From the NCBI GenBank assembly GCA_032718475.1, contig JAUCBJ010006685.1, positions 1 to 64,000 of the forward strand: DNA of 64,000 nt. Direction: 5' to 3'. The notes below the pieces were generated by a model. That model saw only the letters and a list, made by a program, of their open reading frames with translations, searched no databases and was not told the origin of the DNA. The translations under genes and the position numbers were made by a program. This document shows, piece after piece, positions 3,035 to 49,719 of this stretch. Source of the stretch: Nemertoderma westbladi. Taxonomy: Eukaryota; Animalia; Xenacoelomorpha. Each line of letters opens with the position of its first letter. Within the stretch, counting starts at the first letter, position 1.

Positions 3035-5190
3035 ACTGGCCTAGACCTACAGTGTGTATCAATATGTAAAATAGCACTTGGAGTAGGCCTAGACATACAG
3101 TGTGTGCCAATATGTAAAATAGCACTTGGAGTAGGCATAGACCTGCAGTGTAAAATTATGTAAAATAGCACTTGGAGTAGGCCTAGACATACAGTGTGTG
3201 CCAATATGTAAAATAGCACTTGGAGTAGGCATAGACCTACAGTGTGTGTCAATATGTAAAATAGCACTTGGAGTAGGCCAGGACCTACAGTGTGTGTCAA
3301 TATGTAAAATAGCACTTGGAGTAGGCCTAGATATACAGTGTGTACCAATATGTAAAATAGCACTTGGAGTAGGCCTAGACCTACAGTGTAGCAGTATGTA
3401 AAATAGCACTTGGAATAGGCCTAGACCTACAGTGTGTGCCAGTATGTAAAATAGCACTTGGAGTAGGCCTAGACCTACAGTGTGTGTCAATATGTAAAAT
3501 AGCACTTGGAGTAGGCCAGGACCTACAGTGTGTGTCAATATGTAAAATAGCACTTGGAGTAGGCCTAGATATACAGTGTGTACCAATATGTAAAATAGCA
3601 CTTGGAGTAGGCCTAGACCTACAGTGTAGCAGTATGTAAAATAGCACTTGGAATAGGCCTAGACCTACAGTGTGTGCCAGTATGTAAAATAGCACTTGGA
3701 GTAGGCCTAGACCTACAGTGTGTGTCAATATGTAAAATAGCACTTGGAGTAGGCCAGGACCTACAGTGTGTGTCAATATGTAAAATAGCACTTGGAGTAG
3801 GCCTAGATATACAGTGTGTACCAATATGTAAAATAGCACTTGGAGTAGGCCTAGACCTACAGTGTGTGTCAATATGTAAAATAGCACTTGGAGTAGGCCA
3901 GGACCTACAGTGTGTGTCAATATGTAAAATAGCACTTGGAGTAGGCCTAGATATACAGTGTGTACCAATATGTAAAATAGCACTTGGAGTAGGCCTAGAC
4001 CTACAGTGTAGCAGTATGTAAAATAGCACTTGGAATAGGCCTAGACCTACAGTGTGTGCCAGTATGTAAAATAGCACTTGGAGTAGGCCTAGACCTACAG
4101 TGTGTGTCAATATGTAAAATAGCACTTGGAGTAGGCCTAGACCTACAGTGTGTGTCAATATGTAAAATACCACTTGGAGTAGGCCTAGACCTACAGTGTG
4201 TGTCAATATGTAAAATAGCACTTGGAGTAGGCCTAGAGATACAGTGTGTGCCAGTATGTAAAATAGCACTTGGAGTAGGCCTAGACCTACAGTGTGTGCC
4301 AATATGTAAAAAAGCACTTGGAGTAGGCCTAGACCTACAGTGTGTGTCAATATGTAAAATAGCACTTGGAGTAGGCCTAGACATACAGTGTGTGCCAATA
4401 TGTAAAATAGCACTTGGAGTAGGCATAGACCTGCAGTGTACAATTATGTAAAATAGCACTTGGAGTAGGCCTAGACCTACAGTGTGTGTCAATATGTAAA
4501 ATAGCACTTGGAGTAGGCCAGGACCTACAGTGTGTGTCAATATGTAAAATAGCACTTGGAGTAGGCCTAGACCTACAGTGTGTGTCAATATGTAAAATAG
4601 CACTTGGAGTAGGCCAGGACCTACAGTGTGTGTCAATATGTAAAATAGCACTTGGAGTAGGCCTAGATATACAGTGTGTACCAATATGTAAAATAGCACT
4701 GGGAGTAGGCCTAGACCTACAGTGTAGCAGTATGTAAAATAGCACTTGGAATAGGCCTAGACCTACAGTGTGTGCCAGTATGTAAAATAGCACTTGGAGT
4801 AGGCCTAGACCTACAGTGTGTGTCAATATGTAAAATAGCACTTGGAGTAGGCCTAGACCTACAGTGTGTGTCAATATGTAAAATACCACTTGGAGTAGGC
4901 CTAGACCTACAGTGTGTGTCAATATGTAAAATAGCACTGGGAGTAGGCCTAGATATACAGTGTATGCCAGTATGTAAAATAGCACTTGGAGTACGCCTAG
5001 ACCTACAGTGTGTGTCAATATGTAAAATAGCACTTGGAGTAGGCCTAGAGATACAGTGTGTGCCAGTATGTAAAATAGCACTTGGAGTACGCCTAGACCT
5101 ACAGTGTGTGTCAATATGTAAAATACCACTTTGAGTAGGCCTAGACCTACAGTGTTTGCCAATATGTAAAATACCACAGTGTGTGCCAAT
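3035..5190. repeat. 48-bp tandem satellite with a local 238-bp higher-order unit
   Basis: Unit gtaggcctagacctacagtgtgtgtcaatatgtaaaatagcacttgga, ~45 copies. A 46-bp variant (cagtgtagcagtatg) recurs 238 bp apart near 3385 and 3623. Confidence 0.97.
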
Positions 5191-5343
5191 AGATATTTGG
5201 TCAATTTTATTCTTTATAATAATAATAATAATATTTCTGTAGCACTATGACCGGGTTATGAAATGATAAACAATTCAATGGAATGTACTTTGCTTATTTC
5301 CTATGATGTAACTGGATCCATTCGGTAATCTGTCGTAACCGGT

Positions 5344-6313
5344 CTAGCGAAGTAGGAACACTTCATCGAGGCTAGCTTGGGTGGGGAGGGTCCCCATGAT
5401 GGCGCTGGCATTCCCACGGGTGATGGCAATCGATAGCCGCTGGAACAGGAAGGAGGTGGGCCTTGGTTCCCCGGTGGCGAGGGCGATTCGGCGACCGATC
5501 TCATTGAGGAGAACGGTGCCCTCAGCACCGATTGGGCCGAGGGTTTCGGAGGCGACCGTCACAAAGTGATAGTTGTGAGCCAGGTCAGCGTATTTTGCAG
5601 CTTTGGTTGCCTCAGCCGCTGCGGCAGCACCCCCTTCAGTTATCGATGTAATCGGGAGATAGGATTGGGCTAAGGTATCCCGGCAGGTGAAGTCCCAAAC
5701 GAGGCTATGTCCTTGGTGCCAAGGGGCGACAGACATACCGTCTGGTTTCCGGCCATCCTTGCAGAGGTTGGGGGGCTCGAGGGTGGATGATATACCAGCA
5801 GATGACAGGGCGCGGTGGATCACATCGTTGGCCTCAGAGTGGCGGGAGTATTTACCGCAGTTGTGGAGGCAGCTGAGACCATGAGTCCCGCTTGTGTCGA
5901 CGACGGCATCACAGCCTTGACAAGAATGCTCGGCACAGACTGGCGCGCCGAGACGGATGGCGGTGCCAATCCGGACCTGGTCGTCGCTAAGACGGAGCCA
6001 GGGGGAAGCGATGGGGAGCACCTGGAGCCAATCACCTGAGTGTTTAGCCTTAGAGGCGATGAGTCGGGCCTTCGCTTTGGGGGTGTTGGCAGAAGCTAGG
6101 AGGGAGTCGTAGGTTTTGGAGCACAGGGGAGCATCCCAGGCCTTTTGAACAGATGGGTTGGGAGGTGTGTCGGTGCCAGGAGGAAGGAGCGATAGGGCCT
6201 TTGAGATGAGCGGGTTAGTCGAATCGGAGATAGAGGGGGGCAGAAGGGCACGAAGCAGGGGACCGCATCCGAAGACGGAGGCCAAGAAGGCCGGCAGTGA
6301 GACGTCCCTCGTG
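5344..6313 (-). CDS. C-terminal part of the CRE-type ORF: CCHC zinc knuckle plus restriction-like endonuclease
   Basis: CQGC..VDTSGTHGLSC, RHSEAND, RKPDG...W..G.SLVWDFTCRDTLA.SY, AAEATKAAKY, FLFQRLSIAITRGNA. It joins the upstream part in frame once the LTR element and one TSD copy are removed (GGLGVRS|TRDVSLPAFLAS). Confidence 0.9.
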
Positions 6314-6318
6314 CTACG

Positions 6319-6860
6319 TGTGACGGGATCCAGGAGGGATCCCGATTTATCCGGTATTTAGTTCACGCGTCCCCGCCGTGTATAAAGAGTGAATGAAAGT
6401 AAAATGAGTTCTGAAGTTCGGTGTATAATAATAAAGGTATAAGATATAGATATATTGTATAGTATATGGAAGGCGGGATACGGTAACTAAAAGTCCCGTG
6501 CTCCCCTATCTAAACTAATTAACCTATGCTAGCACTACTGCACTGAGATAACTGAATTACTGATATTGGGTTACTGGTTATATTGCACGGTTGGCCTAAT
6601 TACTACCTAATCGATGCCTTGCCCCCCTCTGATTGGTTGATACCCTTGTTGGCACCCCGTGGAGTGTTCCCGTTCACTCCATCTGTTCTCTCTGGGTTAG
6701 GGGTTTGGCCCCTGACCCTTATTGTGTGTGTCTCCTTTGGGGCCTATTGTCCCCATTTACTGGGCTGACACGAGGTTGATTGGTAATCAACCTCGTGCTC
6801 CCAATATTGCTTTATGGCTCACTCTATGGGTTTGTGTTAGCGGAATTGGATAAGCTAACA
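6319..6860 (-). repeat. 3' LTR of element A
   Basis: Matches 12922-13463 apart from one substitution I could see (ccccattt vs ccccgttt); preceded on the minus strand by the PPT. Confidence 0.95.
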
Positions 6861-7379
6861 CTCCCCCCCATGCTATCTTCCCGGTGAGAAGATAGCATCC
6901 ACCAAAAAGTGCGCTACAATTCCGCTGGATCCCGATCTGGTATCGGGTGTGGGGTGGGTTATTTTCTTTCGGAGCCGGCTTTCCGGGCCGCTCCTTATGG
7001 GTATGATATTGCTACCCTCTGGCGTTTCGTGTCGGGCCGATTGTGCGCTTCTCTCACACAATTTTTGTTTCCCCAACACTCTCACCACTCTACTCCAACT
7101 CTCGCATACTTCCGGACCTCCTCGTCCCACACTCTTCCTCTCACTTCTCCTCCCCCACACTTGAATTGCGCCCACGCTCTCTTCGCACTCCGCACTATTA
7201 CTCCATCCCTCATTGACTACCTTATCCCTTCTGACGAATCTCACCCCCCCTCCGTGCCGTCGCACTCAGGAAATGTGAAATCGTCTGGCGTCTTGTCCCT
7301 AGTGCCATAGTCACTTAGCCCCCCAGTCCCAGTCGCTAATTGAGAAAGGTTGTATGACTATAGTACTTACACCACTATC

Positions 7380-8960
7380 TCCGCACTCCGCACTATCACC
7401 TCTCCACTCTCTTGTCACTCCCTAAGGCTTTAATCTCTAATGCTACCCCTGTGCTATCATACTATCTACCTACTGCTTACTAACTCTAACTATCTAACTA
7501 ACTCTGCTAACTACTAACTCTTACTACTTCTAGCTCTAACTGAGAGCCTCTAACTTTCTACTGACTCTAACTCTCTACTAAGTCTAACTAACTCCTACTA
7601 ACTTTCTAGTTCTACTAACTCTACTTGACTCCTCTGAGTCTACCAACTCTGCTAACTAGCTCTACTAACTCTACTCCACTAGCTCTGCTAACTCTACTCC
7701 ACTGGCTCTGCTAACTCTACTAACTAGCTCTACTAACTCTACTCCACTCTTCTAACTACGTGGCGCTTGCGGTGCCCACAACCCCTTTACTACTACTTCC
7801 TTCTTCGTGGCGCTTGCGGTGCCCACAACCACTCTACTATCTGGCACCCTTTGTGCCCTTCTACTACTCAACTACCTCTCTAACACTCTAACCCTACTAC
7901 TTGGCACCCTATGTGCCCTCTCTACTACTCCACTCTCTGGCACCCTATGTGCCCTCTCTACTACCTCTAACACTCTAACTCTACTACTTGGCACCCTATG
8001 TGCCCTCCCTGCTACTCTACTCTATCTCTAACTTTCTAACTCTACTACCTGGCACCCTATGTGCCCTTCTACTATTCTACTCTCTGGCACCCTATGTGCC
8101 CTCTCTGCTACCTCTAACACTCTACTCTACTACCTGGCACCCTATGTGCCCTCTCTACTACTCTACCCTATCTCTAACTTACTTCCTTTACATCCACTCG
8201 CCTGCACGTGACGCTCTGAATGCCGGCAGAGTGGGTACGTTAATTATGTGAACTACTACTAACTCTAACTAACTCTACTAACTCTCTACGTGGCGCTAAC
8301 GGTGCCCACAACCACAACCGGTACTACGTACCCTCTTACTAACTCTACCTCTATCTACGTGGCGCTAACGGTGCCCACAACCACAACCGCTACTACTTTC
8401 TATGTGGCGCTTACGGTGCCCACAACCATTCTACTACTCTACTAACACTCCTAACTAGCGGTACTACGTACCCTCTTACTACTCTAGCTCTCTCTACTAG
8501 CTAGCGGTACTACGTACCCTCTTACTCTTACTAACTCTCTAACGGTACTACGTACCCTCTAACTCTACTAATAAGCGTACTTACGTACCCTCTAACTCTA
8601 ACTAACTAGCGTACTACGTACCCTCTAACTCTCTAACTAACTAACGGTACTACGTACCCTCTAACTCTACTCTAACTAGCGGTACTTACGTACCCTCTAA
8701 CTCTCTAACTAACTAACGGTACTTACGTACCCTCTAACTCTCTAACTCACTACTAGCGGTACTACGTACCCTCTAACTCTCTAACTAACTAGCGGTACTT
8801 ACGTACCCTCTAACTCTAACTAACTAGCGGTACTTACGTACCCTCTAACTCTCTAACTAACTAGCGGTACTTACGTACCCTCTAACTCTCTAACTAACTA
8901 GCGGTACTTACGTACCCTCTAACTAACTAATCGGTACTACGTACCACCCTTTAACTAACT
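7380..8960 (-). repeat. 3' non-coding region of element A: low-complexity spacers with arrays of three short hairpin motifs
   Basis: On the + strand: ~5x gtggcgcNNNcggtgcccac, 7x ggcaccctatgtgcc, ~15x ggtac(t)tacgtacc, within CTA/CTCT-rich spacers. Confidence 0.85.
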
Positions 8961-9029
8961 AACTACTAACTAACTCTTACTACCTAACTTCTACCTACTC
9001 TATTATTTAATTATTTTCATTAATTTTAA

Positions 9030-11051
9030 TTAAATAATTATTTTATATTTTATGCGTGGGAAGGGCGTCTCGCCCTCATTCCCACCCCCCTCAGTCCAAA
9101 ACTTTGGACGACTAAAAACTCTCACGTGCCCCTTCTTCCAGTAGGCACTCTCCTGCTGCCCTCCTATACGTCCTCTAACTCTTCGCCACACTCTCTTCGG
9201 TGCCACCTTTGCTGGCCTCCCCCTTCGTATGTGCGCTGGCATTAGAGCCCTCGACGACCCCCGCTCGTCCCTCGGTATACGCGGTGTCTGCCCGTGCAAT
9301 GCCCCCTCGCACTGTGTCCGTCCTGCGTGTGTATGCAACACGCCTCCTCCTACTTTCCCGACTCCCTTATGTTTGCTAATGGGCTTCTCTGCCCCTGGTT
9401 TAGTCCTTTCACATCCTCTCCCTTTCCAACACTCTCCGGATCTGTGTCCTTTTACCACACATCGATGACATAGTCCGTTTGCGTCTGTGTAGGCTACACG
9501 ATCTCGTTTGGGCAACGCTTGCCAGTACTTACAACTCCTGGTCTTATGGGTTCCGTCCCGATGTAATTGACATTGGAATCCTGGATTATAGCGTTTCCTG
9601 TATAGTCCTTCACGTATCGCGCTTAGGTTTATATGTACCGATTTAATGTTTTGGTTGTCTAGACTCGGCCTACTGGGTATATTGGGATTGTGTTTATTTT
9701 TGGTGTTATTTTCTTTCTGTCCCTGCCACGGTGTGGCCCTGCTACCAGCTAACTGTGGACTAGCAGTCCCCTGTACGGCCGCGTGTGGTATTGACTGTCC
9801 GCACGACCTGTTCTCGTCCAAGGGGTTCGATGTTCTCGCTCCTATTGGGGTATATTGTCGATATTGTGATGGGGGAATGTCACCCTGTCCCCCCCCGGCC
9901 GGTATGTTTGGTACTGGGGTTGATGTTAATACATTGGGGCCCATACGTCTATCTCCAATAACTCCCCCCTCCCCTGGATATATGTTATGTCCCTGTGTAT
10001 TATAGTCATGCTGCTGTACCGATATAGGCCTACCTACCTCTCGCCTACCTACCGGTATGTACTCCGCGACTTCCGGGTTTAATCCCGTCGTTCGCGCTAC
10101 CCCATCGCCTACTCTATCTCTCCCAGCATGGCCTATAATAGTATGTGCAGTAAGGCCTACAGTATGTCCTGCAGTCTGCATGTGCCCTTCCGAACCGAAG
10201 TTTATTCTTCGCGAATCTCGAATCTCCCCGCGACTACTGCACTCTCGATCGGCAGCTATATCCCGTCGGGAAGCTTCTCTTCGATCCCCTCTCCTGTTCT
10301 CGTCTTCGTATTGGTACCTCCTGTACCCCTCTCTTGGCGTGCGGTGCGTTTCTCCGGGGCGACGGCAATCTCCCGAAGTTCGACCCCACTGACTCCCCAA
10401 CTCCATCTCTACTATCGACGGTCCGTTATCCGTCCTCGTACTCCTATCGTTCGTGGCGACACTTCTTCTACTATCTCCTCTTCTTCTCTTTTCAGTGCAG
10501 TATTCCGGCTCATGAGATCTCTCGTCGACCTCCCGGTTAAACTCCACTGTTCTTCTTCCCTCTTCTGATCGGGCTCGACGCTTCGTCCTGCCCTCTCGCG
10601 ACGTCAACCTGCCTCTCTCTGCTCGATCGCACGCCGCTGGGGATACTCGCAATCCCCCTATTACTCTCCGTCGCCGGGTGTTGCGGTTTACCTGATTCGG
10701 CCCGCGCATTATCCGCTGACGGCTGTGGGACACTCTCTGCCCCCCCTCTCTCTCTACTAATCTTCTCGCGGTGGGGTGTCCGTAGCCCCCCCCCCCCCAC
10801 CCGCCACTTCTAACTTCACTACCTCTTACTACACCTCTACACCCCTCTTGTGGGGCATTCTCTGCCCCCCCTCTCTCGCCACTAACTTCTCGCGGTGGGG
10901 TGTCCGTAGCCCCCCCCCACCCGCCACTTCTAACTTCACTATCTCTTACTACACTTCTGCGTCCCTCTTGTGGGGCATTCTCTGCCCCCCCTCTCTCGCC
11001 ACTAATCTTATGTGGTGGGGCGCCGGTAGCCCCCCCCCCCACCCGCCACAT
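9030..11051 (-). CDS. Gag-like ORF of element A, C-terminal part with zinc knuckles
   Basis: FQCQLHRDGTHKTRSCKYW...DANGLCHRCVVKGHRSGEC; closely similar to 42255-44411 of element B; frame breaks fall at G runs. Confidence 0.7.
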   Translation of the reverse strand: MWRVGGGATGAPPHKISGERGGAENAPQEGRRSVVRDSEVRSGGWGGATDTPPREVSGERGGAENAPQEGCRGVVRGSEVRSGGWGGGGYGHPTARRLVEREGGQRVSHSRQRIMRGPNQVNRNTRRRRVIGGLRVSPAACDRAERGRLTSREGRTKRRARSEEGRRTVEFNREVDERSHEPEYCTEKRRRGDSRRSVATNDRSTRTDNGPSIVEMELGSQWGRTSGDCRRPGETHRTPREGYRRYQYEDENRRGDRREASRRDIAADRECSSRGEIRDSRRINFGSEGHMQTAGHTVGLTAHTIIGHAGRDRVGDGVARTTGLNPEVAEYIPVGRREVGRPISVQQHDYNTQGHNIYPGEGGVIGDRRMGPNVLTSTPVPNIPAGGGQGDIPPSQYRQYTPIGARTSNPLDENRSCGQSIPHAAVQGTASPQLAGSRATPWQGQKENNTKNKHNPNIPSRPSLDNQNIKSVHINLSAIREGLYRKRYNPGFQCQLHRDGTHKTRSCKYWQALPKRDRVAYTDANGLCHRCVVKGHRSGECWKGRGCERTKPGAEKPISKHKGVGKVGGGVLHTHAGRTQCEGALHGQTPRIPRDERGSSRALMPAHIRRGRPAKVAPKRVWRRVRGRIGGQQESAYWKKGHVRVFSRPKFWTEGGGNEGETPFPRIKYKIII

Positions 11052-11594: not shown

Positions 11595-12860
11595 CTAACG
11601 TACTACTATTACCCCCCCCCCCCCGCCCGTACGGCTACACCAGTTCTGGTTCTCTCGCCCGGTGTCTGTAAGTGGGGGCTCACTCTCTGATATCTCCAAC
11701 CGCGCCAGTTCTAGTCGGCGCCGATTCAGTTTGGCTTGATATTGTGTAAGCCTCTCTAGCTGGGCACGCAAATCATCCTGCACGCGCTTACTCTCTATCT
11801 CTCTCTCTCGCATATTCTGTTCTTCCAACTCTGACCATCTCGCAGTCATCTCCAACCGCCTCGCCGACTCGCTCTCTACTCCCATCTCCCGCTCTCTACA
11901 CTCCTCGGCTGCCTCTCTACACTCCTCGGCTCCCTCTCTACACCCCTCGGCTTCCTCTCTACACTCCCTCGCCCACTCTTCTTCTCCCTCCAACAATGCG
12001 GTTTTCTCTCTCAATTGCCACTCTAACTCATTCTGCTCATTCGCCACCGTTTCTAATTCACACGTCAGACCTATCTCCCGCACCCTTCTTTCTTTTGCGG
12101 AGGATGTAGCAGACTTATCGGTTGCGACGGACTCCCGTCGCCCCTCCGTCCCACCAACTTTCCCCCGCCTCCCGGAACTTCCTCCTACCGACGAGACCGA
12201 ATCCTCGGGTTTAACCTCGGATTCGCCCTCCTCAGGTCTCTTCCAACCCACTAATTTTACTCCCCGGGCATCGACTAAGTATGGCCCTACGTACACTACG
12301 CTAGGTTCCATACCCCTACACTCCCATACTTCAATCAGTTCGTTGGCAACTCCCCTCGCCCTCTCCTCGGCTAGTTCTCTCTGCCCAAAACGCATTAGGT
12401 AATCAAAGTATCTGCTCGACTCACCTAGTCCTCTTGTTAATCTCACCTTGTCTATCTTCGCCCTTCCTCTGGCCTCTCTCAGTTGCTTCCGGGTCGCGAG
12501 GTAGGCCCGTCGAAGTCGATCAGAAACCCCGACGTCCTCGTCGCCGACCTCTCCTCCGTCTCTCCGGGCCCGACGTCGTACCGGCGGCCCCACCGTCGCC
12601 GTTCCGGTGGGTCGTCCGTCGCCCTCGGCCTGTGGCTGGCCGGCGACATCGGTACGTCGACCCTCGCTCCGCGTCGACTCGTCTTTCTTCCTTCCCGTCT
12701 CGTCCTCTCGCTGTAGACGGCCCCCCTCGTCTCGGATCGCCGGATGGCCCGTTCTCGATGGGTTCGGCGTTGTGGGTGCATACCGTCTCGTCGCGGCCTC
12801 GCGGATCGTTAGATCGCCGTCCGGGGTCCGCGGCGGTGTCGTCTTTCTTGACTGACTCAT
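11595..12860 (-). CDS. Gag-like ORF of element A, N-terminal part (charged, coiled-coil-like, EAAEECRE repeats)
   Basis: ATG ~60 nt after the 5' LTR; homologous to 40602-42050 in element B; frame lost at a long C run near 11612-11624. Confidence 0.7.
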   Translation of the reverse strand: MSQSRKTTPPRTPDGDLTIREAATRRYAPTTPNPSRTGHPAIRDEGGRLQREDETGRKKDESTRSEGRRTDVAGQPQAEGDGRPTGTATVGPPVRRRARRDGGEVGDEDVGVSDRLRRAYLATRKQLREARGRAKIDKVRLTRGLGESSRYFDYLMRFGQRELAEERARGVANELIEVWECRGMEPSVVYVGPYLVDARGVKLVGWKRPEEGESEVKPEDSVSSVGGSSGRRGKVGGTEGRRESVATDKSATSSAKERRVREIGLTCELETVANEQNELEWQLREKTALLEGEEEWARECREEAEGCREGAEECREAAEECREREMGVESESARRLEMTARWSELEEQNMREREIESKRVQDDLRAQLERLTQYQAKLNRRRLELARLEISESEPPLTDTGRENQNWCSRTGGGGGVIVVR

Positions 12861-12921
12861 CTCCTTTGGTAATTGGTGGCTGATGGTTTGGCTAGCTAGG
12901 GCAGCGGTTGGTTTTAGTTAC

Positions 12922-13463
12922 TGTGACGGGATCCAGGAGGGATCCCGATTTATCCGGTATTTAGTTCACGCGTCCCCGCCGTGTATAAAGAGTGAATGAA
13001 AGTAAAATGAGTTCTGAAGTTCGGTGTATAATAATAAAGGTATAAGATATAGATATATTGTATAGTATATGGAAGGCGGGATACGGTAACTAAAAGTCCC
13101 GTGCTCCCCTATCTAAACTAATTAACCTATGCTAGCACTACTGCACTGAGATAACTGAATTACTGATATTGGGTTACTGGTTATATTGCACGGTTGGCCT
13201 AATTACTACCTAATCGATGCCTTGCCCCCCTCTGATTGGTTGATACCCTTGTTGGCACCCCGTGGAGTGTTCCCGTTCACTCCATCTGTTCTCTCTGGGT
13301 TAGGGGTTTGGCCCCTGACCCTTATTGTGTGTGTCTCCTTTGGGGCCTATTGTCCCCGTTTACTGGGCTGACACGAGGTTGATTGGTAATCAACCTCGTG
13401 CTCCCAATATTGCTTTATGGCTCACTCTATGGGTTTGTGTTAGCGGAATTGGATAAGCTAACA
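12922..13463 (-). repeat. 5' LTR of element A
   Basis: Starts tgttagc on the minus strand and ends ...ggatcccgtcaca; followed by non-tRNA PBS-position sequence gtaactaaaa. Confidence 0.95.
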
Positions 13464-16426
13464 CTACGCACGCCAAGCCCACCTGAAGCGATGGGGAGAG
13501 AGGCTTGAGACCAGGAAGAGTCGTCGAGCCGAATATTCAGCGTTGACTCAAGTGCAGCTCTAATTGAAGAGTCGAAGTCGGATAGAGATGGGGCAAGGAA
13601 GCAAGGGGAGCAACGCAGGATATACATTAGTTTGGGGATTGCGAAACAGTGGCGGAGCAGGTATAAAGCGTCATGAGAGGAAAGGAGTTGGAGGCGATTG
13701 GTGAAAGTTGCCAGTTCGGATGCTTTGTTCTGGAGAATGGACTCCATAGCTGGTTCACCGAGCGGAGCACCCAGAAGGGAGGCATCAACGAGGTCGATAC
13801 ATTTGATTCCAGGAGTGATCGCATCGAATATGGCGGCGGTCTCAGGTTTCCGATTTGGTGGAAAGTTGGTGGAAAAAATCAACTCACATTTCGATGCTTT
13901 AATCTGGAGGCCGAGTTTAGCAGCTTTGGAGATCACAGATTCAAGGTTAGAGGCAACAACGGAGGGGGTCCCTCCAAGGGACCCATCGTCTAAGAACCAG
14001 ACGTTGAGGGGAGTTTCGACACTCTCAACAATTTCATGGGTGTCAGAGCTGAAGAAAAGGTTGCCTAGAGGGTCACCCTGTTGAATTCCAACCTCCGAAG
14101 AAATGGTTGTGTCCTCATAGAAGAGGTGGGTGGGTTGCGAGTAAGCCTGGAAAGCGATGGGGTACAGGGGTGGAAGGTTCTGCAGGATTGAATGGAGGAC
14201 AGGCCCGCGATGAACGCTGTTGAAGGCGTTTTTGAAGTCAATTTTGACCATGATGGTTGGCTCAACGGACTCCTGAAGAAATCTCCGGGATGCATGAACA
14301 GCGGCCTCGCAGCCACGGGGTATTCCATGGCCTAGTTGGTGGGGGGCAAGTTTGAGTTGGGAGTTCTTAGAAGATTGATGGCAACCAGTCTTAGCAGATA
14401 GACGTCGAAGGGTACAACCTACTGCAATGGGACGGATTCCGCCGTTGACTTTGGTAAAGGCACATAGTCGGGCCCCATACAGAAAAGGGAGGATGGTTTC
14501 TGGAACTAATCCTTTGATTAGTAGGTTGGATATGCCGGTGATGCCTTTCAGAGCTCCCATGGCGGCATCGCCGGATTGGTGGGAGCAAAAGTCCTTAAGG
14601 AATTGAGGACGAAGTTTGTCGGGGCCGGCGGCAGAACCATTCGGAAACGATCGGATAGATTTCATGATTTCTGGAAGGGAGAACTCGATGAGAGGGATAT
14701 CAAGGACATCAAGCGAGGGGAGCTCCAGAAGGCATCCTGGAACGGCTGGAGGGTGAAGTGAAAGGAGGGCCTGGAGTGTTTCGGGAGTTGCGGGTGCAAT
14801 AGAGGTGGCCGAGGAGGCCAGGCGGGCGGCAGCCTTGACATTACCTTCTTCTATTTTGGAGGATATGAGATTGCCTAAGTGCTCATCACGGATTGCTTGG
14901 GAATCCGTCTTGAGTGGGCATCGTCTAGGAGGGGTGGGGAGGGCAATGGGTGAGGGGCCAAGGGCTAGATCGAGGTAGTCAGAGATTTGGTCTTTGACCT
15001 TAGAGGTAAGTGACTTTCCGACACGGCTGGGGTGGTTGGATTTGTTACAGCGTCTTTTCCGGGTGTTGCAAGATGGGACACGGAGACAATAGGGGAAGGC
15101 GAGTAGGTTGATCCAGTTTTTTACAGAATTGTCCTGGGTCACAGAAGTGCATAGGCGGGTGTAGGCTGATGCGGCGGATGAGCGGGCGCCACGCGGGATG
15201 CGGGTCAGGGTTTTAATCTTAGAGAGAGTGATGAACAGGTTTGTCAAATGTGCAGCATAATTGAACCCGGGTGCCTCACAAGGTGTTTGCGGCAGGGCTG
15301 GGTTGGGTGGCTCGCAGGAAGGCCCTGAGACAGGGGTTTGGTTGGAGGTGGGGCTGACCACCGGCTGATTGAGTAGTGGTAGAGAACCGGAACCGGGACA
15401 ATGGGAGCCATCCAGGGCCTTGTGTTTACGGAGGCCACCGTTGATTTTGGTGAGGCACAGCCTGCTGCACGAGCCGCATAAGGAACGGGGTAGATTGGCT
15501 TGACGTGGTTCAGTTGGAGCAGATTGAGAGTCTGACTGACTGAAGATGAGGGTTTGGGGGGATTCGGGTATTTCAGATCGACTTAGGTGGCCCGAAATAT
15601 TGGGTTGAGGTAAGACATGGAAGAAGGGAGGGGAGATAGGGGTGGATGCATGGTGGGTGGGAGGGGGGGGTGATGATGGTGCACAGGGTGCTTGTTTGGG
15701 GTCGACCAGAGGGGGAAGGTCGGGTTCGGGGAGCGTGATGGTGGAAGAACTGGGGCTTACTAGGGTGGAGTGACTAGCAACAAGGTCCCGCAGGTGGACC
15801 CGGAAAGAATTGATTGGTTCATCATTGTTATAGGGGGGTACAATACCGTCGAGACTCATTTTAAGAAAGCGACAGACGAAAACCCCACATTGGAAACCAT
15901 CGAACTGGAGTTTGGGAAGGGGTAAACCGATGCTAGTTGGGGGCGTTTGGATGCCGTGACGTGATGAAGTGGCTGTAACCCAGTGTTGGAGGGCAGCTAC
16001 ACACTGTCCATCAATTCCACCGAATGAGTCATAGTAATTGATGACCCCTGATTGGGGGGAGAAGGATGCCAAAGACCAATGATAGCCCCCCACGTTTATT
16101 GGGAAAAAAAGTACGTCATAGGAAAATGTGTCTGCCTGGGACCAGCGGCGGACCCTAGAGATCCCGTTGGGTGACATGAGGGTGTTAAAAAACTGGGTGC
16201 TGAAAACCTTTGCTTTACCGGGGTATTGGAGGCAGAAGAATTCAGAGATTGCCTCGATAATATTGTCATTCAGCCAGTTTTTGCCTGAGAGGGTGCTGAT
16301 GTCGGCTTCAGAGATGGAACGGCCAGCCAGGAGGAAAGATGGTTTATCTACAGATGGAGGGTCAAAGAGGAGGACGCTATCGGATATAAAATCGGAACTG
16401 AGATTGATTGTGGTGTTTGGATCCAT
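13464..16426 (-). CDS. N-terminal part of the CRE-type ORF: Ulp1/peptidase C48, zinc finger, reverse transcriptase
   Basis: WLNDNII, FFPINVGGYHWSL, YYDS, QFDGFQCGVFVC (His-Asp-Gln-Cys protease residues); CGSC...LRKH....HCPGSG; RT motifs SAAGPDKLRP, GGIRPIAVG, KIDFKNAFNSV, GIQQGDPLG, WFLDDG. Confidence 0.92.
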
Positions 16427-16744
16427 TAAACTTTTTTGAATCTCGAAATGATAACAATATTTGCAATAATTGGTAAGAAAATGTAACCGGAGTAGCCAAA
16501 TGGTGATACAGAAGTTGGCCCTATTAGCCTAATCGGGCGGTACAGCAATAAAATATGAAACAGCAACAAATGGGACGGCAAACGATAGGCAGTTACAGGT
16601 GAGGTGAGATAAATTGATGGTAGAAGGATGCTGGCGTATAGAAGAGATTGTAATGATAACAGTTATTGATTTGTAAATAGTGATCGCATTGAAGGGTGAT
16701 GCAGTCATATGCCATATGGGTGGTATTTAAACAGACTGAGAAGA

Positions 16745-16960: not shown

Positions 16961-19243
16961 ATGCCCAAACGTCGGCCCCGGGGTGGGTACCAGTAACTAG
17001 GGTCACCGGCCACCACCCACAACTGGGCCCGGAACCTCGGTAGTCGTTGCACGAACCTTGAAACACGTACGGCGGCTTGGTGGACAGTAGTCTGACATTA
17101 GAATTAGCAGAAGGAGGTGAATTTAATCACCTACTTATGATTTTATTAGTTCAATCAAGACCATAAGTGATGTTTCTTTGTGAAGAAGCTTCTTCTTTAA
17201 TATTTTTCATAGATAATTAAATAACATATGACTTAAACAAATATGATTTATATCAAATCCATATTTATTATATAATTTTTTTTTCAAAATGAATCAATGA
17301 ATCATCAAATAGAAATTAAAGCTTTTTAGCTAGTAATTAAAACAAAATTTAATCTAAAAACTTAATCTGAAAATTTAGTCACACTTCTCTTATTCAAAAT
17401 TCTAGAATGCAATTTGGTCAATTGGTTTTTGTGACCTCTATGTGTATAAAAGTACCACGCCTCTATCTTACTCACTCAGCTTCACTCTCTAAATTTGCCA
17501 GACAATAAAAACTTCCAACTTTTTAAATTTTTTCTTTTCTTTCTTTCTTTCTTTCTATAATTATTTTTAATTTAACTAGAGAAAGGAGCAGGTTACAGTG
17601 GCACGTTAGTTATTTCAACCAAAACAATAAACTAAACACAATAGAACAGCGGTTACCGTTTTATTTTTGAGAGTAATCAGCTAATATTTGCGTCGAATTT
17701 CCCCTGGAATGAATTTTTATTGCGACCAGTTCCCCCCCAGCCCCCCCAGCCCCCCCCCCCCCCCCCCCCGAAAATATCAATAGAAAGCGGAGAGTCTTGC
17801 GCATCTTTTGACACTACAATTAATTAAATTCATGATGAGGAATATTTATAAAATACTGTTTGCAGCAGTATTTCTAGCAGCAATACTGCATTCCAAGCTG
17901 TATTTATTAGGCCTACGATAAGGCCTACAGATAAGATTTAAAATAACACTAAACTTGTAATACGGGTCAGCGGTATTGTATAATAGAGTAATAATTGGCA
18001 GTACCAGTAGGCAACTTGAATATTAAAAATGTGTACTGTTCACCGGTAAACCCTACGTAAAGAAGTAAAGCTGCACTACTCAGATACTACTGTACAATAG
18101 GCTGTATGCTGTTGTATTGTATTAATACAGTACTTTATATTTTTATTTATTAAATATTGGATGTGGTTTTAGGTAGGCTTACTGTAGGTCTATGCTGTGT
18201 GCCCTACTGTATATTGTATATATGTTTTAAAGTATATACTTGTGTTGTACTGTATGTGTGCTATAGCTCAGGTGCTGCAAAAACTAACGTCTTATTCAAA
18301 ACCAAATATCGGAAATCGATAGTTGATCTACCCTGTCTGGCAATTCAGCTGTCCCCCCAGGGGAGATAGAAATATAACTGGATAATAATATATAATATAT
18401 TGAGATTGTTTGAGGCGATTTGGGGAGTAATTGTGTCCAAATTTGAAGGATTGCATATGGCTGTATACTGTAGTTGTGTACCGGTGCCATGTGCAAGCTG
18501 TCAAGATTTAATATAATATATAGGGGGTGATGGCTGACAAAGTGTCACCGAATGAAGAAAGGTGAGGCACTGCAAAACCTTAATTAAATTTCTGTTGGAA
18601 CTCTTGATTATTGGCTAAGCTAATAATAATCCCCACCTGCAGAACCAAACTCCTGGAGATCTACTGTATCCCCCTAATTCAACTTCCTCCCCACTTAGGA
18701 ATGTTGGACATGAACCACAGTTGTATTCCTTTTGAGATGATGTTTCTTTCCACAAATGTTAATGAAATAAACATATGATATGATAGACAGCACACTTTCC
18801 CTTTACGCCCTTATAGACAAAATATTCAAATTCAATCTGTACAAATTATTCCGGGTGTCATTTTTTTTGCGCAATAATTTTTATTGTCCATTTTTATCCT
18901 TTTTTTGTCAATTTTTTTTGATTTTTTATGTCATCCAAAAGTCTAATGTTAGGTTCCATGCTACCGGTTTCTCTACTGCTGTTCTCTCAGGCTATTAGTA
19001 CCGGTTAGTATATATATAGCACTATTTTGCTGTATTGTATGTACAGATGTAGGTATAAAGCAGGTATTTCTGTATTTTAGTACCGGTACCGGCACTGGTA
19101 CTGCTATAGGCCTACTGTGTAGCCTACCATTTAAATACGGTAATGGTAGGCCTACCGGTTGTGCTAATAAATTTTAAATAATTGATAGGCGAAACTGGAT
19201 TGCCCGTATATATATCCCCGTATACGAGGGAATAGAAGTAGTT

Positions 19244-20488
19244 ATGGGTTTTGTAACCCAGCATCACCTTGCCATTAATATGTTCGGCCTAGAATTACCT
19301 GAACTATATGGTCTGCTGCAATTAGCCCTTGAACGTAGCTATTTTCATTTTGACGGGTCATTTTACACCCAGAAACACGGTATGGGTATGGGTGATAGAC
19401 TCGCAGGCCCTTTTTCCATAATCTACGTCCACGTTAAGGAGACTTTATATTTAAGTAATTACCACCTATCACCAAACTGTTGGTTCCGTTTTTACGACGA
19501 CGGTTGGTCCACCTGGTCCCACGGGGAGGAAGAACTCGATAATTTTTTAGATTACTTAAACACTTGCCATTCTACCATCAAATACACTTTGGAAAAAAGT
19601 TTTCATAGCATCCCTTTCCTCGACACCCTCACAACCATAAACAACACAGGACGCATTGATTTTGAACTGTATGTAAAACCCTCTAACGCTGGAATAACAC
19701 TCAATTTCTATAGTGCCCACCCTAAAACAACCATTCTTAATACAGCTAGGACAGCACTTAAACGCGCCATACGCCTTAGTACTACCCCAGCTGGGGAAGT
19801 ACGCAGCCTTGATAAGGTAAAAACAACTCTGGCCAGTAACGACTATCCACCGGAATTAATAAACAAATTAATCTCAGAAATCAAGCACCCACGCCCACGC
19901 ACACGCACACACCCACAAGCACCCCGTAGCACCATAAACCATATTATTCAACCACTTGTACTACCTTACATAAACGAGAATATATTAAGACAAGTTAAAC
20001 AAGCTATTCATAATTCACCTTTCGCACACAACACAAGGGTGGTGTCAACTACAGGCCCAAAACTCAGAAACATCCTAATTAAATCCAGACTCAACCCACC
20101 CCGATGCCCGGCGCCCCCTAACACCACATGTTACGCATGTACACATGGGGTCACTAACTGCACCGATAAGAATACCGTGTACCATGTCAAATGTACCAAC
20201 TGTACCGACGACTATATAGGTGAAACGTCCTCTCAGACAAGGGGACGCATAATGTCACACCGTAATGCCATACGCAAAAAGAACCAAGGTTCAGGTAAGA
20301 CTTCAGTCGGAGCACACTACGCTGACAAGCACCCCACACTAACAAGCACACAACACCCTTTCACCGCCAAAATACTACGACGATGTAAAGATTGGGCCGA
20401 CAGGAAACTAACCGAACGTGTACTCATCAATCGCCTCACACCTGCCATAAACGTACAGTACGCAAATGAGTTTGATACTGGTTGGTGA
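19244..20488 (+). CDS. Penelope-like RT and GIY-YIG endonuclease (partial)
   Basis: PLE RT motifs and GIY-YIG signature (VY...YIGET). The frame is open upstream to ~19212 (IPVYEGIEVV), where homology breaks. Confidence 0.88.
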   Translation: MGFVTQHHLAINMFGLELPELYGLLQLALERSYFHFDGSFYTQKHGMGMGDRLAGPFSIIYVHVKETLYLSNYHLSPNCWFRFYDDGWSTWSHGEEELDNFLDYLNTCHSTIKYTLEKSFHSIPFLDTLTTINNTGRIDFELYVKPSNAGITLNFYSAHPKTTILNTARTALKRAIRLSTTPAGEVRSLDKVKTTLASNDYPPELINKLISEIKHPRPRTRTHPQAPRSTINHIIQPLVLPYINENILRQVKQAIHNSPFAHNTRVVSTTGPKLRNILIKSRLNPPRCPAPPNTTCYACTHGVTNCTDKNTVYHVKCTNCTDDYIGETSSQTRGRIMSHRNAIRKKNQGSGKTSVGAHYADKHPTLTSTQHPFTAKILRRCKDWADRKLTERVLINRLTPAINVQYANEFDTGW

Positions 20489-21081: not shown

Positions 21082-21660
21082 GTAACCTGCCCCTTTCCCT
21101 CAATTAGTTAAATGATCGTTTATTGTTTTGGTTAGAAAATCCCGTCTCTGTAACCTGCTCCTTTCCCTCAATTAGTTAAATGATCGTTTATTGTTTTGGT
21201 TAGAAAATCCCGTCTCTGTAACCTGCTCCTTTCCCTGATTTGGTAAAGTGACTGTTTATTGTTTTGGTTAGAAAATCCCGCCTCTGTAACCTGCTCCTTT
21301 CCCTCAATTAGTTTAAGTGATCGTTTATTGTTCTGGTTAGGAAATCCCGCCTCTGTAACCTGCTCCTTTCCCTCAATTGGTAATTTTATCGTTTATTGTT
21401 TTGGTTAGAAAATCCCGCCTCTGTAATCTGCTCCTTTCTCTCAATTGGTAATGTTATCGTTTATTGTTTTGGTTAGAAAATCCCGTCTCTGTAACCTGCT
21501 CCTTTCCCTCAATTAGTTAAATGATCGTTTATTGTTTTGGTTAGAAAATCCCGTCTCTGTAACCTGCTCCTTTCCCTGATTTGGTAAAGTGACTGTTTAT
21601 TGTTTTGGTTAGAAAACTCGGCCTTAACCTGCTCCTTTCCATCAATTGGTAATTGTTTTT
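21082..21660. repeat. ~63-bp tandem repeat (~9 copies)
   Basis: Unit cgtctctgtaacctgctcctttccctcaattagttaaatgatcgtttattgttttggttagaaaatcc; related single copies at ~17575-17632 (inverted) and ~25230-25295. Confidence 0.9.
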
Positions 21661-22869: not shown

Positions 22870-22893
22870 AGCCGTTATTACTTACGTACATTA

Positions 22894-24318
22894 CTACTAG
22901 GATCGGCATGCTGCATTGCAGCTGCATTTTTAAGAATGCTGTGCCGGCTTGTCAACAAAGTTGCACCGCCACAACTCCCTATCACCTATGACATTTGCTA
23001 GATCATCCGCATCTTTAAGGCCAGTGTCCTTTAAGATGCGTCTCAAGAAAGTCATGGGCTGTCCACCATGCTTATTCACTCCATGAGGCTGCCAAAGTAC
23101 AAGATTATGCACTGGCTGGTCCTCACGGCGAAAGCAATGTCCTGCAAAGCGGAGGCGATTTTGTTCTAGTGTCAAGCTTGGGGGAACCAATGAGACACCT
23201 CCAATGTTATATAGTGTCTGGTTGGAGATGTGTGCATTGTACTTGACACAATGTACCCGGCGTAGCATTCTTGTGAATGTGCCATCCAGAGATTTGGTGT
23301 CCTCAGCAGTTAGAGCCCAGCATGGACTCCCGTAGAGGAGTACTGGAACTACTGCTGCTCTAAATAATCGGACCTTAAGTTTCCGATTAATTCTAGGTGA
23401 CTTCCAAATCCTGGAAAGCCTATTCAAGGCTGCCCATGCCTTTCCCTTACGTATTCGAAGGTCCTCACCTGACTTCCGGATCCATGATCCCAGGTAACAG
23501 AAGTCGTCCACATGCTCAAGCATACCATCCTTTGAGCTTATGCTCATCCGATCAGAGACTTGCTGAGGACTTTCAAAGTTAACTGTCAGAATTTTGGTCT
23601 TTCTGGAGTTAATAAAAAGACCAACACTAGAAGCAGCATGTTCTAATGAGGTGAGGAGCCGTTGGGCTCCCTCTAGTGATTCTGAGAGTACTCCTAAGTC
23701 ATCAGCAAAGTCTAAATCAGTTAGGTACTTGGCAGGATTTCCTCGACTTCTGGAGCCAGTAGGTGGAGTTATCATCACCCCATCATCATTATGATGATCT
23801 AAGGACATGCGTAGAACATAGTCAACCACAATTATGAACAAGAAGGGTGCAAGTGTGTCTCCCTGGAGGACGCCCCATAACACTTCAAATGGTTCTGTGT
23901 CACCGTCAACAGTAGACACAAATGTTGTCGAACCATCGTATACTGATCTGATTGCTGCAATAATTTCATCACGAATCCCATATAATGAAAGTATGCTGAA
24001 CATACGTGAGCGAGAGACTGAATCAAAGGCCTTGAAGAAGTCAACAAATATAACAGCCATATAGAAGATGCCTGTCTTTCTTTTTTGATAACTCTTCAAT
24101 TATCCTTCTAAGTGCCAAAATGGGCTCCATGGTCCCACGACCTTTACGGAACCCATTCTGATTTCCACGGAGCAGTCTCTCAATGGGATCCCTGATGCGA
24201 TTTAAAGGAATTCTATTGTATAGCTTTGCAGCAATCGAGATCAATGAGATTCCCCGAAAAGAACCATAGAGTGTTAGGTTGCCTTCTTGGGAACTGGCAC
24301 CAACTTATTTGTTACCAT
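22894..24318 (-). mobile_element. 5'-truncated RTE-clade LINE, copy 1 (frameshifted RT)
   Basis: RT motifs FVDFFKAFDSV, GVLQGDTLAPFLF, LDFADD, FCYLGS; short (TAG)n tail; 9-bp TSD cgtacatta (22885-22893, 24319-24327). Confidence 0.92.
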
Positions 24319-26461: not shown

Positions 26462-29400
26462 TCCGTAGAAACCTACGAGAATGGAAAGGAACACTTTGCA
26501 GTGTTTGTTTCCACGGTAGAAACCTACAAGAATGGAAAGGAACACTTTGCAGTGTTTGTTTCCACGGTAGAAACCTACGAGAATGGAAAGGAACACTTTG
26601 CAGTGTTTGTTTCCACGGTAGAAACCTACGAGAATGGAAAGGAACACTTTGCAGTGTTTGTTTCCACGGTAGAAACCTACGAGAATGGAAAGGAACACTT
26701 TGCAGTGTTCGTTTCCACGGTAGAAACCTACAAGAATGGAAAGGAACACTTTGCAGTGTTCGTTTCCACGGTAGAAACCTACAAGAATGGAAAGGAACAC
26801 TTTGCAGTGTTAATTTCCACGGTAGAAACCTACGAGAATGGAAAGGAACACTTTGCAGTGTTAATTTCCACGGTAGAAACCTACGAGAATGGAAAGGAAC
26901 ACTTTGCAGTGTTAATTTCCACGGTAGAAACCTACGAGAATGGAAAGGAACACTTTGCAGTGTTAATTTCCACGGTAGAAACTTACAAGAATGGAAAGGA
27001 ACACTTTGCAGTGTTAATTTCCACGGTAGAAACCTACGAGAATGGAAAGGAACATTTTGCAGAGTTAATTTCCACGGTAGAAACCTACGAGAATGGAAAG
27101 GAACACTTTGCAGTGTTAATTTCCACGGTAGAAACCTACGAGAATGGAAAGGAACACTTTGCAGTGTTAATTTCCACGGTAGAAACCTACGAGAATGGAA
27201 AGGAACACTTTGCAGCGTTCGTTTCCACGGTAGAAACCTACGAGAATGGAAAGGAACATTTTGCAGTGTTAATTTCCACGGTAGAAACCTACGAGAATGG
27301 AAAGGAACACTTTGCAGCGTTCCTTTCCATGGTAGAAACCTACAAGAATGGAAAGGAACACTTTGCAGTGTTCGTTTCCACGGTAGAAACCTACGAGAAT
27401 GGAAGGGAACATTTTGCAGTGCTCCTTTCCACGGTAGAAACCTACGAGAATGGAAAGGAACACTTTGCAGTGTTCGTTTCCACAGTAGAAACCTACGAGA
27501 ATGGAAAGGAACACTTTGCAGTGTTAATTTCCATGGTAGAAACCTACGAGAATGGAAAGGAACACTTTGCAGTGTTAATTTCCACGGTAGAAACCTACCA
27601 GAATGGAAAGGAACACTTTGCAGTGTTAATTTCCACGGTAGAAACCTACGAGAATGGAAAGGAACAGTTTGCAGTGTTAATTTCCACGGTAGAAACCTAC
27701 GAGAATGGAAAGGAACACTTTGCAGTGTTCGTTTCCACGGTAGAAACCTATGAGAATAGAAATGGACACTTTGCAGTGTTTGTTTCCACGGTAGAAACCT
27801 ACGAGAATGGAAAGGAACACTTTGCAGTGTTCGTTTCCACGGTAGAAACCTACGAGAATGGAAAGGAACACTTTGCAGTGTTAATTTCCACGGTAGAAAC
27901 CTACGAGAATGGAAAGGAACACTTTGCAGTGTTAGTTTCCACAGTAGAAACCTACGAGAATTGCAGCGTTCCTTTCCATGGTAGAAACCTACGAGAATGG
28001 AAAGGAACATTTTGCAGTGTTAATTTCCACGGTAGAAACCTACAAGAATGGAAAGGAACATTTTGCAGTGTTAATTTCCACGGTAGAAACCTACAAGAAT
28101 GGAAAGGAACACTTTGCAGTGTTCGTTTCCACGGTAGAAACCTACGAGAATGGAAAGGAACATTTTGCAGTGTTAATTTCCATGGTAGAAACCTACGAGA
28201 ATGGAAAGGAACACTTTGCAGTGTTAGTTTCCACAGTAGAAACCTACGAGAATTGCAGCGTTCCTTTCCATGGTAGAAACCTACGAGAATGGAAAGGAAC
28301 ACTTTGCAGTGTTCGTTTCCACAGTAGAAACCTACGAGAATGAAAAGGAACACTTTGCAGCGTTCCTTTCCATGGTAGAAACCTACGAGAATGGAAAGGA
28401 ACATTTTGCAGTGTTAATTTCCACGGTAGAAACCTACGAGAATGGAAAGGAACACTTTGCAGTGTTAATTTCCACGGTAGAAACCTACAAGAATGGAAAG
28501 GAACACTTTGCAGTGTTAATTTCCACGGTAGAAACCTACGAGAATGGAAAGGAACATTTTGCAGTGTTAATTTCCACGGTAGAAACCTACGAGAATGGAA
28601 AGGAACACTTTGCAGTGTTAATTTCCACGGTAGAAACCTACGAGAATGGAAAGGAACATTTTGTAGTGTTAATTTCCACGGTAGAAACCTACGAGAATGG
28701 AAAGGAACACTTTGCAGTGTTCGTTTCCACAGTAGAAACCTACAAGAATGAAAAGGAACACTTTGCAGCGTTCCTGTCCACGGTAGAAACCTACGAGATT
28801 GGAAAGGAACACTTTGCAGCGTTCGTTTCCACGGTAGAAACCTACGAGAATGGAAAGGAACACTTTGCAGCGTTCGTTTCCACGGTAGAAACCTACGAGA
28901 ATGGAAAGGAACATTTTGCAGTGTTCGTTTTCACGATAGAAACCTACGAGAATGGAAAGGAGCACATGGAAAGGAACATTTTGCAGAGTTAATTTCCATG
29001 GTAGAAACCTACGAGAATGGAAAGGAACACTTTGCAGTGTTAATTTCCACGGTAGAAACCTACGAGAATGGAAAGGAACATTTTGCAGAGTTAATTTCCA
29101 TGGTAGAAACCTACGAGAATGGAAAGGAACACTTTGCAGTGTTAATTTCCACGGTAGAAACCTACGAGAATGGAAAGGAACATTTTGCAGTGTTAATTTC
29201 CACGGTAGAAACCTACAAGAATGGAAAGGAACACTTTGCAGTGTTCGTTTCCACGGTAGAAACCTACGAGAATGGAAAGGAACATTTTGCAGTGTTCGTT
29301 TCCACAGTAGAAACCTACGAGAATGGAAAGGAACACTTTGCAGTGTTAATTTCCACGGTAGAAACCTACGAGAATGGAAAGGAACACTTTGCAGTGTTAA

Positions 29401-39947: not shown

Positions 39948-40506
39948 TGTTAGCTTATTCAATCCCGCCAACACCCCATAAAGTTATTAGCCGATAAGCA
40001 ATATTGGGAGCCACGAGATTGGGCAATTAACCAACTCGTGCCATCCCAATAAGAGTGGGAAGGAAGCACACAATAGGGGTCAGGGGCCAAACCCCTAACC
40101 AAGAGAGAACAGCAAGGGCGAAGGGAAGCACTTCAGAGGGGGGCAAAGGGTGCCAACAGGGGTATTAGCCAATGGGGGGACAGCATCGACTAAGTACTGT
40201 AACGGCCAAACCCGTGCAATATATATTACCTGTACGGTAATCATTATAGTCAGTTTACTCAGTCAGCTATCCCAGTACAGTAAGGCAGTACGGTGACTGT
40301 TAAGACCGTCGTCGCCACCGTCACCATATTAGCAGTATTCAGCTTTATCTACTGTGCTATCTGTATCACTCATCATTTATTATCTCAACGTTATCAGAGT
40401 TCGACAACGACACTAGAACAATTATTACCTTTTCCATTCACACGGCGGGGCGGGGACGCGTACGAAACACACCGGATAAACCGGGATCCTCTCGGATCCC
40501 GTCACA
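39948..40506 (+). repeat. 5' LTR of element B
   Basis: tgttagc...ggatcccgtcaca; followed by gtcttaaca, not a TGG-type tRNA PBS. Confidence 0.95.
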
Positions 40507-40601
40507 GTCTTAACATCTGAGAATTGCCTGAACTGTAACTGCCCGTCACAGTCTTAACACTAGGCCTGCCGAGCTGTGACTGACGGCTACCAAAGACGAA
40601 G

Positions 40602-44411: not shown

Positions 44412-44434
44412 TTAAAAATAAATAATAAAAATAA

Positions 44435-49700: not shown

Positions 49701-49719
49701 AGTACATCCATTGCCCACA

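Follow-up and report, generated by a model that had tools for sequence, protein, structure and literature searches.

The window, the whole stretch of 64,000 nucleotides analysed here, contains two related LTR elements, denoted A and B, which raise the question of how a retrotransposon starts minus-strand synthesis when its 5' LTR is not followed by a tRNA-type primer binding site (PBS). The window is repeat-rich and, judged from its retroelements, appears to be animal-type DNA. The first-pass annotation had stated that no TGG-type PBS lies behind the 5' LTR, which holds for both A and B, and had proposed that a short LTR segment complementary to the PBS position serves as the primer in a BEL/Pao-like lineage. 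We conclude, with a probability of roughly 0.7, that A and B start minus-strand synthesis with their own RNA, not with a tRNA, through a variant of the Tf1 mechanism. The case for this reading is built from sequence comparison and predicted RNA folding.

Organization of the two elements and their surroundings

Element A lies on the minus strand (13463-6319) and element B on the plus strand (39948-46430). The 5' LTR of A (12922-13463, 542 bp), which begins with TG and ends with CA, is identical to its 3' LTR (6319-6860) at 541 of 542 positions, and the target duplication CGTAG is found at 13464-13468 and 6314-6318. In B, the 5' LTR (39948-40506, 559 bp) and the 3' LTR (45876-46430, 555 bp) are identical at all 555 aligned bases and differ by one 4-nt gap, with the target duplication TTAAT, 5 bp in length as in A. 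The near-identical LTR pairs and the 5-bp target duplications indicate that both elements are recent insertions, so that some primer works for each of them. The bodies of A and B are approximately 87-95% identical over the longest blocks, and the 25-nt polypurine tract of A (6861-6885, minus strand) is identical to that of B (45851-45875, plus strand). A 24-nt stretch of U3 that can form a small hairpin is also identical in the two elements (13308-13331 and 40079-40102), the LTRs being otherwise 82% identical.

Each element contains two gag-like ORFs in different frames followed by tandem repeats. In A, the first ORF (11595-12917, minus strand, ATG at 12860) has no Pfam match, and the second, in another frame (9030-11051), encodes two zinc knuckles (9429-9572). 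The counterparts in B, both on the plus strand, are an ORF at 40584-42050 (ATG at 40602) and one at 42252-44411, with two zinc knuckles at 43524-43667. No Pfam family was detected in any of the 28 sense-strand ORFs of at least 50 amino acids in A and B, and no pol was found among them, so the enzymes would have to come from an autonomous relative. In the place of pol, both elements carry purine-rich tandem repeats with short palindromes (7400-9000 in A and 44430-45560 in B).

The surroundings of the two elements are equally rich in mobile and repetitive DNA. Element A interrupts a non-LTR retrotransposon on the minus strand (13427-16528 and 5344-6357) that encodes a Ulp1-type protease and a reverse transcriptase (RT) and whose ORF continues past the target duplication of A. 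A LINE carrying an RT is present in two copies that are 97.5% identical (22892-24313 and 33382-34797). The interval 49600-63200 is taken up by a 42-bp satellite (about 325 copies), whose strand skew is strong, and further tandem arrays with units of approximately 95, 68 and 51 bp are located at 3038-5196, 21082-21654, 26465-33375 and 35500-37270; the 51-bp array flanks LINE copies, and its orientation changes near 32500. A plus-strand ORF at 19178-20488 contains RT-like motifs and a weak match to GIY-YIG (E = 0.04) and is, by resemblance, presumably Penelope-like. A minus-strand ORF of 489 amino acids without a Pfam match (1244-2713) shows a possible resemblance to the N-terminal part of Polinton-type polymerases.

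Complementarity between the LTR and the PBS

The four short sequences on which the proposal was based are present in the two elements. In A, the 10 nt at the PBS position (12912-12921, minus strand), which do not include TGG, are exactly complementary to an LTR site at 13086-13095, the candidate 3' end of the primer; in B, the first copy of the PBS (40507-40515, plus strand) is complementary to an LTR site at 40298-40306. As had been claimed, both pairs stay fully complementary, over 10 nt in A and 9 nt in B, despite the differences between the elements, and the register is set by the base that follows the terminal CA: the complement reaches its full length with this anchor (offset 0), and offsets -1 to -3 yield 0-6 nt. 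A complement of this kind anywhere in the LTR was obtained in 14 of 20,000 dinucleotide shuffles for A and in 30 of 20,000 for B, a joint rate of approximately 1e-6. Among the 9-mers of the first 500 internal nucleotides, those with a complement in the LTR occur only at offsets 1-2 in A and at offsets 1 and 148 in B.

The two duplexes differ by three substitutions and one indel, every one of which is compensated on the other strand. Without gaps, the two PBSs differ at 5 of 9 positions, and the cross-pairs, the PBS of A with the LTR of B and the reverse, share only 4 nt of complementarity; this comparison involves the only two elements that have both partners on one molecule. The further claim that the two sites occupy a homologous context holds in a flank-anchored alignment with low gap extension, which matches them, but not in the MAFFT alignment. 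The latter fails because A has an extra duplication of about 28 nt in the leader, an imperfect copy of a leader unit that the low gap-extension alignment places at 13120-13147 (minus strand). Under a published screen for self-primers, which demands a complement of at least 10 bp located 0-5 bp from the LTR (PMC6317226), A passes and B is one base short.

The complement might also have arisen without any function, if a template switch had copied a short stretch in inverted orientation. Local duplications are indeed abundant in both A and B, but an origin of this type would have to be assumed two times over, in differing sequence and yet at identical positions of both partners (approximately 1e-6 jointly), together with a lengthening, on both arms in B, of the helix that adjoins the site. 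We consider this explanation very improbable.

Predicted folds of the leader

The first-pass annotation had also pointed to a helix between CGCC and GGCGGG and to an 8-bp GGATCC hairpin in U5, and both were recovered in the predicted folds. The first base of the former, hereafter helix 2, is the one that follows the site, and its partner is the GGCGGG tract in U5. In A, it is predicted to join 13075-13085, directly 3' of the site, to 12971-12980 (-17.0 kcal/mol); in B, both arms are longer (40307-40322 and 40444-40460; -26.0 kcal/mol). The terminal U5 hairpin of 8 bp is predicted at 12927-12947 in A and at 40482-40501 in B, and carries no covariation information because its stem is identical in the two elements. 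In both elements, a GGGATCC motif resembling an arm of this hairpin (45799-45817 and 6920-6945) precedes the polypurine tract by about 70 nt and might base-pair with the end of the LTR.

A and B adopt the same arrangement in their minimum-energy folds: an outer helix joins the leader to the sequence behind the PBS, helix 2 and the terminal hairpin are formed, and the site is paired with a decoy in U5. The decoy of A is an imperfect copy of the PBS (12960-12969, minus strand), and in B a region (40460-40475, plus strand) acts as the decoy by pairing with both the site and the flank 5' of it. The leader upstream of the site in A (13096-13119) pairs imperfectly with 12882-12911 behind the PBS, and the corresponding leader of B (40274-40297) pairs with a spacer that follows the first of its two PBS copies (PBS1 and PBS2, see below) and, less strongly, with sequence behind PBS2. 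Shuffle tests of the pairing beyond the core duplex gave a clear result for the B spacer (42 and 18 of 2000), a borderline one for A (175 and 101 of 2000) and no significance for PBS2 of B (458 and 235 of 2000). For the whole leader, the folding z-score was -1.46 in A, where 21 of 200 shuffles did as well, and -3.22 in B, where 0 of 200 did.

In sliding duplex scans, the site window was the best among all LTR windows in each of three cases, and duplexes of a leader with its own PBS were far more stable (-26.7 to -31.6 kcal/mol) than cross-pairs (-13.3 to -15.8 kcal/mol). Forcing the pairing of site and PBS costs 0.1 kcal/mol in A, 1.3 for PBS1 of B and 10.8 for PBS2 of B; in unconstrained folds, the probability of this pairing is 0.43, 0.06-0.10 and 0, respectively. 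When PBS1 and the spacer are blocked, B folds differently. Since the energies of the decoy and PBS forms are nearly equal, the predicted folding by itself gives the priming form no preference, and the two folds, as modelled, are consistent with a switch.

Two near-equal folds that share their outer helices, however, also resemble what is expected if the pairing of site and PBS were a structural or regulatory lock, acting in packaging, dimerisation, translation or timing, while a host RNA, for example a tRNA half, served as the primer. Primers consisting of half-tRNAs or internal tRNA segments, without TGG, are known in copia lineages (PMC6317226, PMC5445492). No tRNA genes were found within the 64-kb window, and Rfam gave no matches in either LTR region. 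The lock is disfavoured by several features of the two elements: a single host RNA cannot fit both PBSs, given the differences at 5 of 9 positions, and yet bodies that are about 90% identical suggest one source of enzymes; moreover, the complement stops exactly at the LTR boundary in both A and B, a register that only a primer needs. This explanation accordingly appears unlikely, although it is the strongest competitor of self-priming.

Predicted transcription start and primer length

For the LTR site to act as a self-primer, transcription would have to start upstream of it, and a start downstream of the site had been named as an argument against the proposal. All candidate starts, which are defined by motifs, lie upstream in both elements. 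In A, a TATA-like motif (13185) is followed 29 nt downstream by an initiator-like TCAGTT with its A at 13156 (motifs at 13153-13188, minus strand), and B contains the same pair of motifs (40218-40255, plus strand; A of TCAGTT at 40252). The distance from the TATA-like motif to TCAGT is 29-32 nt in both LTRs, and the initiator consensus is given as TCAKTY in PMC3601003. Starts at these motifs would yield fragments of 71 nt (A) and 55 nt (B) up to the 3' end of the site. The outer helix of the modelled folds, together with the breakpoints of the duplications described below, suggests a shorter fragment of 33-34 nt with a start at 13119 (A) or 40274 (B). The start is thus likely to lie upstream of the site, with a predicted primer of 33-71 nt in which the site is located 24-61 nt inside the transcript. 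These predictions specify the exact nucleotides at which RNA ends are expected, namely 13086 and 40306, and 13119 or 13156 in A and 40274 or 40252 in B.

A primer produced by splicing inside the LTR would offer another route to a short RNA, and an AG preceded by pyrimidines is indeed present inside the site of A. Among 10,365 joins tested in A and 12,345 in B, the best matches to the PBS were 8 nt and 6 nt, respectively, compared to 10 and 9 nt for the unspliced sequences, which makes this the least likely of the explanations considered. An intron wholly upstream of the site would be compatible with these results.

Duplications of the PBS and sibling copies

Element B carries the end of the LTR and the PBS twice (40498-40515 and 40542-40559), a feature that was overlooked in the first-pass annotation. 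The second copy (40542-40559, plus strand) consists of a duplicated LTR end of 9 nt and PBS2, and is separated from PBS1 by a 26-nt spacer (40516-40541, plus strand) that is complementary to the leader and homologous to sequence found behind the PBS in sibling copies. Sequence of the element was found in 6 public sequencing runs from 4 studies among those listed, none of which is marked as RNA, and contigs from four of these runs were matched to the region of A (2224, 1022, 1097 and 9 contigs). In the run with 9 contigs (X6, whose RNA origin is a guess), no contig covers the site or the PBS, and a further run, X4, yielded no contigs. The duplication layout of B, with its 26-nt spacer, was recovered nearly or fully in one piece in three of four runs (two samples); one run carrying it may be the source of the DNA analysed here.

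An additional duplication is present in a contig of another run, X3 (depth 71, which is not a copy number), which reads LTR end, PBS, a 25-nt spacer, CA and PBS. The breakpoint of each duplication lies 34-35 nt beyond the end of the LTR, and the opposite strand of either spacer starts with AGTT. The B spacer and the leader of B agree at 18 of 26 positions, a match reached by 123 of 10,000 shuffles under a scoring chosen after the match had been seen, and the X3 spacer, compared with the leader of A by eye and without gaps, matches at 15 of 25 positions, 15 of them among the first 18. A direct copy of the primer was considered as the origin of the B spacer and found no support: among the contigs listed (13 of 14 loose ends and 21 of 33 records), none carries the spacer as an LTR leader, and homology was found instead to internal sequence of siblings. 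In 5 of 9 cases, the spacer-like sequence behind the sibling PBS continues into ordinary internal sequence, so that the B spacer may be internal sequence of a sibling joined by recombination. Read-through of a 34-nt primer is a possible origin of the spacer. A motif conserved in the spacer-like sequences of siblings can pair, as judged by eye, with the leader or with the junction of LTR and PBS.

Variation among the sibling copies offers weak evidence of constraint: among the 40 of 104 variants that were listed, none falls in the site or the PBS, and neighbouring positions vary. Of 10 joints between LTR and internal sequence, six keep at least 9 bases of the PBS, three keep 2-3 and one keeps none. 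The three joints with 2-3 bases are siblings with other PBSs, in which the LTR partners are unreadable. In one X3 contig, the LTR site is one T shorter.

The duplications also bear on the possibility that the primer, while derived from the LTR, acts in trans, its source being R at the 3' end of the RNA or small RNAs processed from LTR transcripts. The site, being part of the predicted R region, would be present at both RNA ends, the DNA runs contain LTR sequence in high abundance, and the 3' end of the transcript cannot be placed because neither LTR contains AATAAA or ATTAAA. Against a primer of this kind, helix 2 and the outer helix suit a local fold of the 5' leader, and the breakpoints of both duplications match a point 33-34 nt upstream of the 3' end of the site. 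We regard a primer in trans as quite unlikely.

Proposed mechanism of self-priming

The reading that A and B prime their own reverse transcription can be formulated as a series of steps. According to the promoter motifs, transcription is predicted to start upstream of the site, so that the first 33-71 nt of the RNA end in the complementary site. When the leader folds back, the site would then exchange its partner, the U5 decoy, for the PBS, and both helix 2 and the outer leader helix would persist. By analogy with Tf1, RNase H, presumably belonging to the reverse transcriptase of an autonomous relative, would cut after the 3' C of the site, where the PBS helix meets helix 2, and the freed 3' OH would prime copying into U5. 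The RNA that provides the primer could be the one being copied or a sibling packaged together with it. In the last step, the end of the primer would be copied during plus-strand synthesis and so restored in the PBS; this copying would by itself hold site and PBS in agreement and yield covariation.

The proposal of Tf1-like self-priming made in the first-pass annotation thus survives in its principle, which is favoured by the register, the covariation, the upstream start motifs and the lack of a better spliced match, and not in its details, as the geometry of Tf1 is not reproduced. A more elaborate scenario, which we put forward as a tentative speculation, is a BEL/Pao lineage with its own form of self-priming, in which a capped 5' fragment of about 34 nt (possibly up to 71 nt) is cut at the joint between the two helices and is kept inactive by the U5 decoy until the leader refolds. 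In this scenario, copying would at times run to the 5' end of the fragment, and the resulting PBS duplications would record the length of the primer and re-template the sequence behind the PBS.

Lineage of the elements

The assignment of A and B depends largely on the second gag-like ORF, which in both elements encodes two zinc knuckles 34 residues apart, the first with a His at the second ligand position. A search of 1.84 billion representative proteins yielded two matches at E <= 0.001. One is an unnamed protein (P0002) that matched the second gag-like ORF of B in a phmmer search with E = 2.2e-4 (pairwise 5e-14); it contains three knuckles that fit a triple Cys-His box, with the same 34-residue spacing as the pair in A and B. 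The other (P0001) is a Tudor-repeat protein and was dismissed. A zinc knuckle of Ty3 Gag, the best match in PDB, was too weak (E = 0.057), and four metagenome matches in pattern scans, from sequences with 67-74% GC and no similarity beyond the pattern, were attributed to chance. Pattern scans of viral and prokaryote collections gave no matches, and further protein searches for related loci found none.

The triple Cys-His box is described as characteristic of BEL/Pao (PMC554778), and elements of this group are reported to have an 18-nt PBS for tRNA-Arg or tRNA-Gly (ICTV profile, PMC8742986). In A and B, the third knuckle of the box, a PR-RT-RH-IN pol with a BEL-type RT and an 18-nt PBS for tRNA-Arg or tRNA-Gly are all absent; likewise, the Pfam search of the 28 ORFs found no Gypsy-type pol with a chromodomain integrase, as in Tf1/sushi. 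The LTR ends fit the Sushi and rGmr1 motifs at the 3' end in both cases and at 6 of 7 positions at the 5' end; the source of these motifs (PMC3601003, Table 3) has no BEL/Pao motif to compare with. Of the original label, the knuckle spacing shared with the triple-knuckle protein P0002 speaks in favour, whereas the missing third knuckle, pol and tRNA-type PBS speak against it. On the basis of the two zinc knuckles, A and B are probably BEL/Pao-like, and we do not file them as members of that group.

Comparison with known self-priming systems

The closest parallels are found in the Tf1/sushi group of Ty3/gypsy chromoviruses. In Tf1 of yeast, the RNA's first 11 bases pair with the PBS, and RNase H cuts between bases 11 and 12 (PMC7175516); the cDNA has a PBS tail on the plus strand (PMC11042837), and a pretzel of three duplexes forms in which both sequences adjacent to the PBS pair with the LTR downstream of the primer (PMC10085805). 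Like Tf1/Tf2, Tj1 and Tosmo/Tcry1 of this group, A and B lack a tRNA PBS (PMC7175516, PMC4600332, PMC10085805) and have, directly behind the LTR, a PBS that is complementary to an LTR segment, with helices beside the duplex. The differences are substantial. Whereas the Tf1 primer comprises the first 11 bases, the site of A and B is predicted to lie 24-61 nt inside the RNA and to form a duplex of 9-10 bp. The pretzel does not appear in the forced folds or the duplex scan of A and B, in which the partner of the sequence behind the PBS lies upstream of the site; unlike in Tf1, helix 2 pairs with the middle of U5 and a decoy competes for the site; and, unlike in Tf1/sushi, Gag has two knuckles of BEL-like spacing and pol is absent.

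Self-priming has been predicted, from a complement of at least 10 bp in the 5' LTR, for TAR, Houba and Osr-1, which are Ty1/copia elements of plants, and for Tcn1 (PMC6317226). These elements belong to other superfamilies and hosts than A and B; nevertheless, they show that self-priming has already been proposed outside Tf1/sushi. The fungal GalEa, with a conserved hairpin site, and Skipper of Dictyostelium, with a polypyrimidine PBS, are also without a tRNA PBS (PMC5445492, PMC5006619). No LTR complement was found in these two studies, in contrast to the exact and co-varying complement of A and B.

With BEL/Pao (Belpaoviridae), A and B share animal-type host DNA, LTRs of the TG...CA type, a polypurine tract and tandem zinc knuckles. 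Replication of this group is described as tRNA-primed and poorly understood (ICTV profile, PMC8742986). The literature searched, which lies outside subscription journals and Repbase entries, contained no report of self-priming in BEL/Pao, and PMC554778 and PMC3118150, searched for PBS or tRNA, gave no hits. If the reading proposed here is correct, self-priming would occur in all three major superfamilies of LTR elements. Its geometry in A and B, with an internal site, a longer primer and a decoy switch, would differ from that of Tf1. Self-priming would also explain why PBS finders would miss such elements, and would show what an element that lacks pol must keep for its mobilisation.
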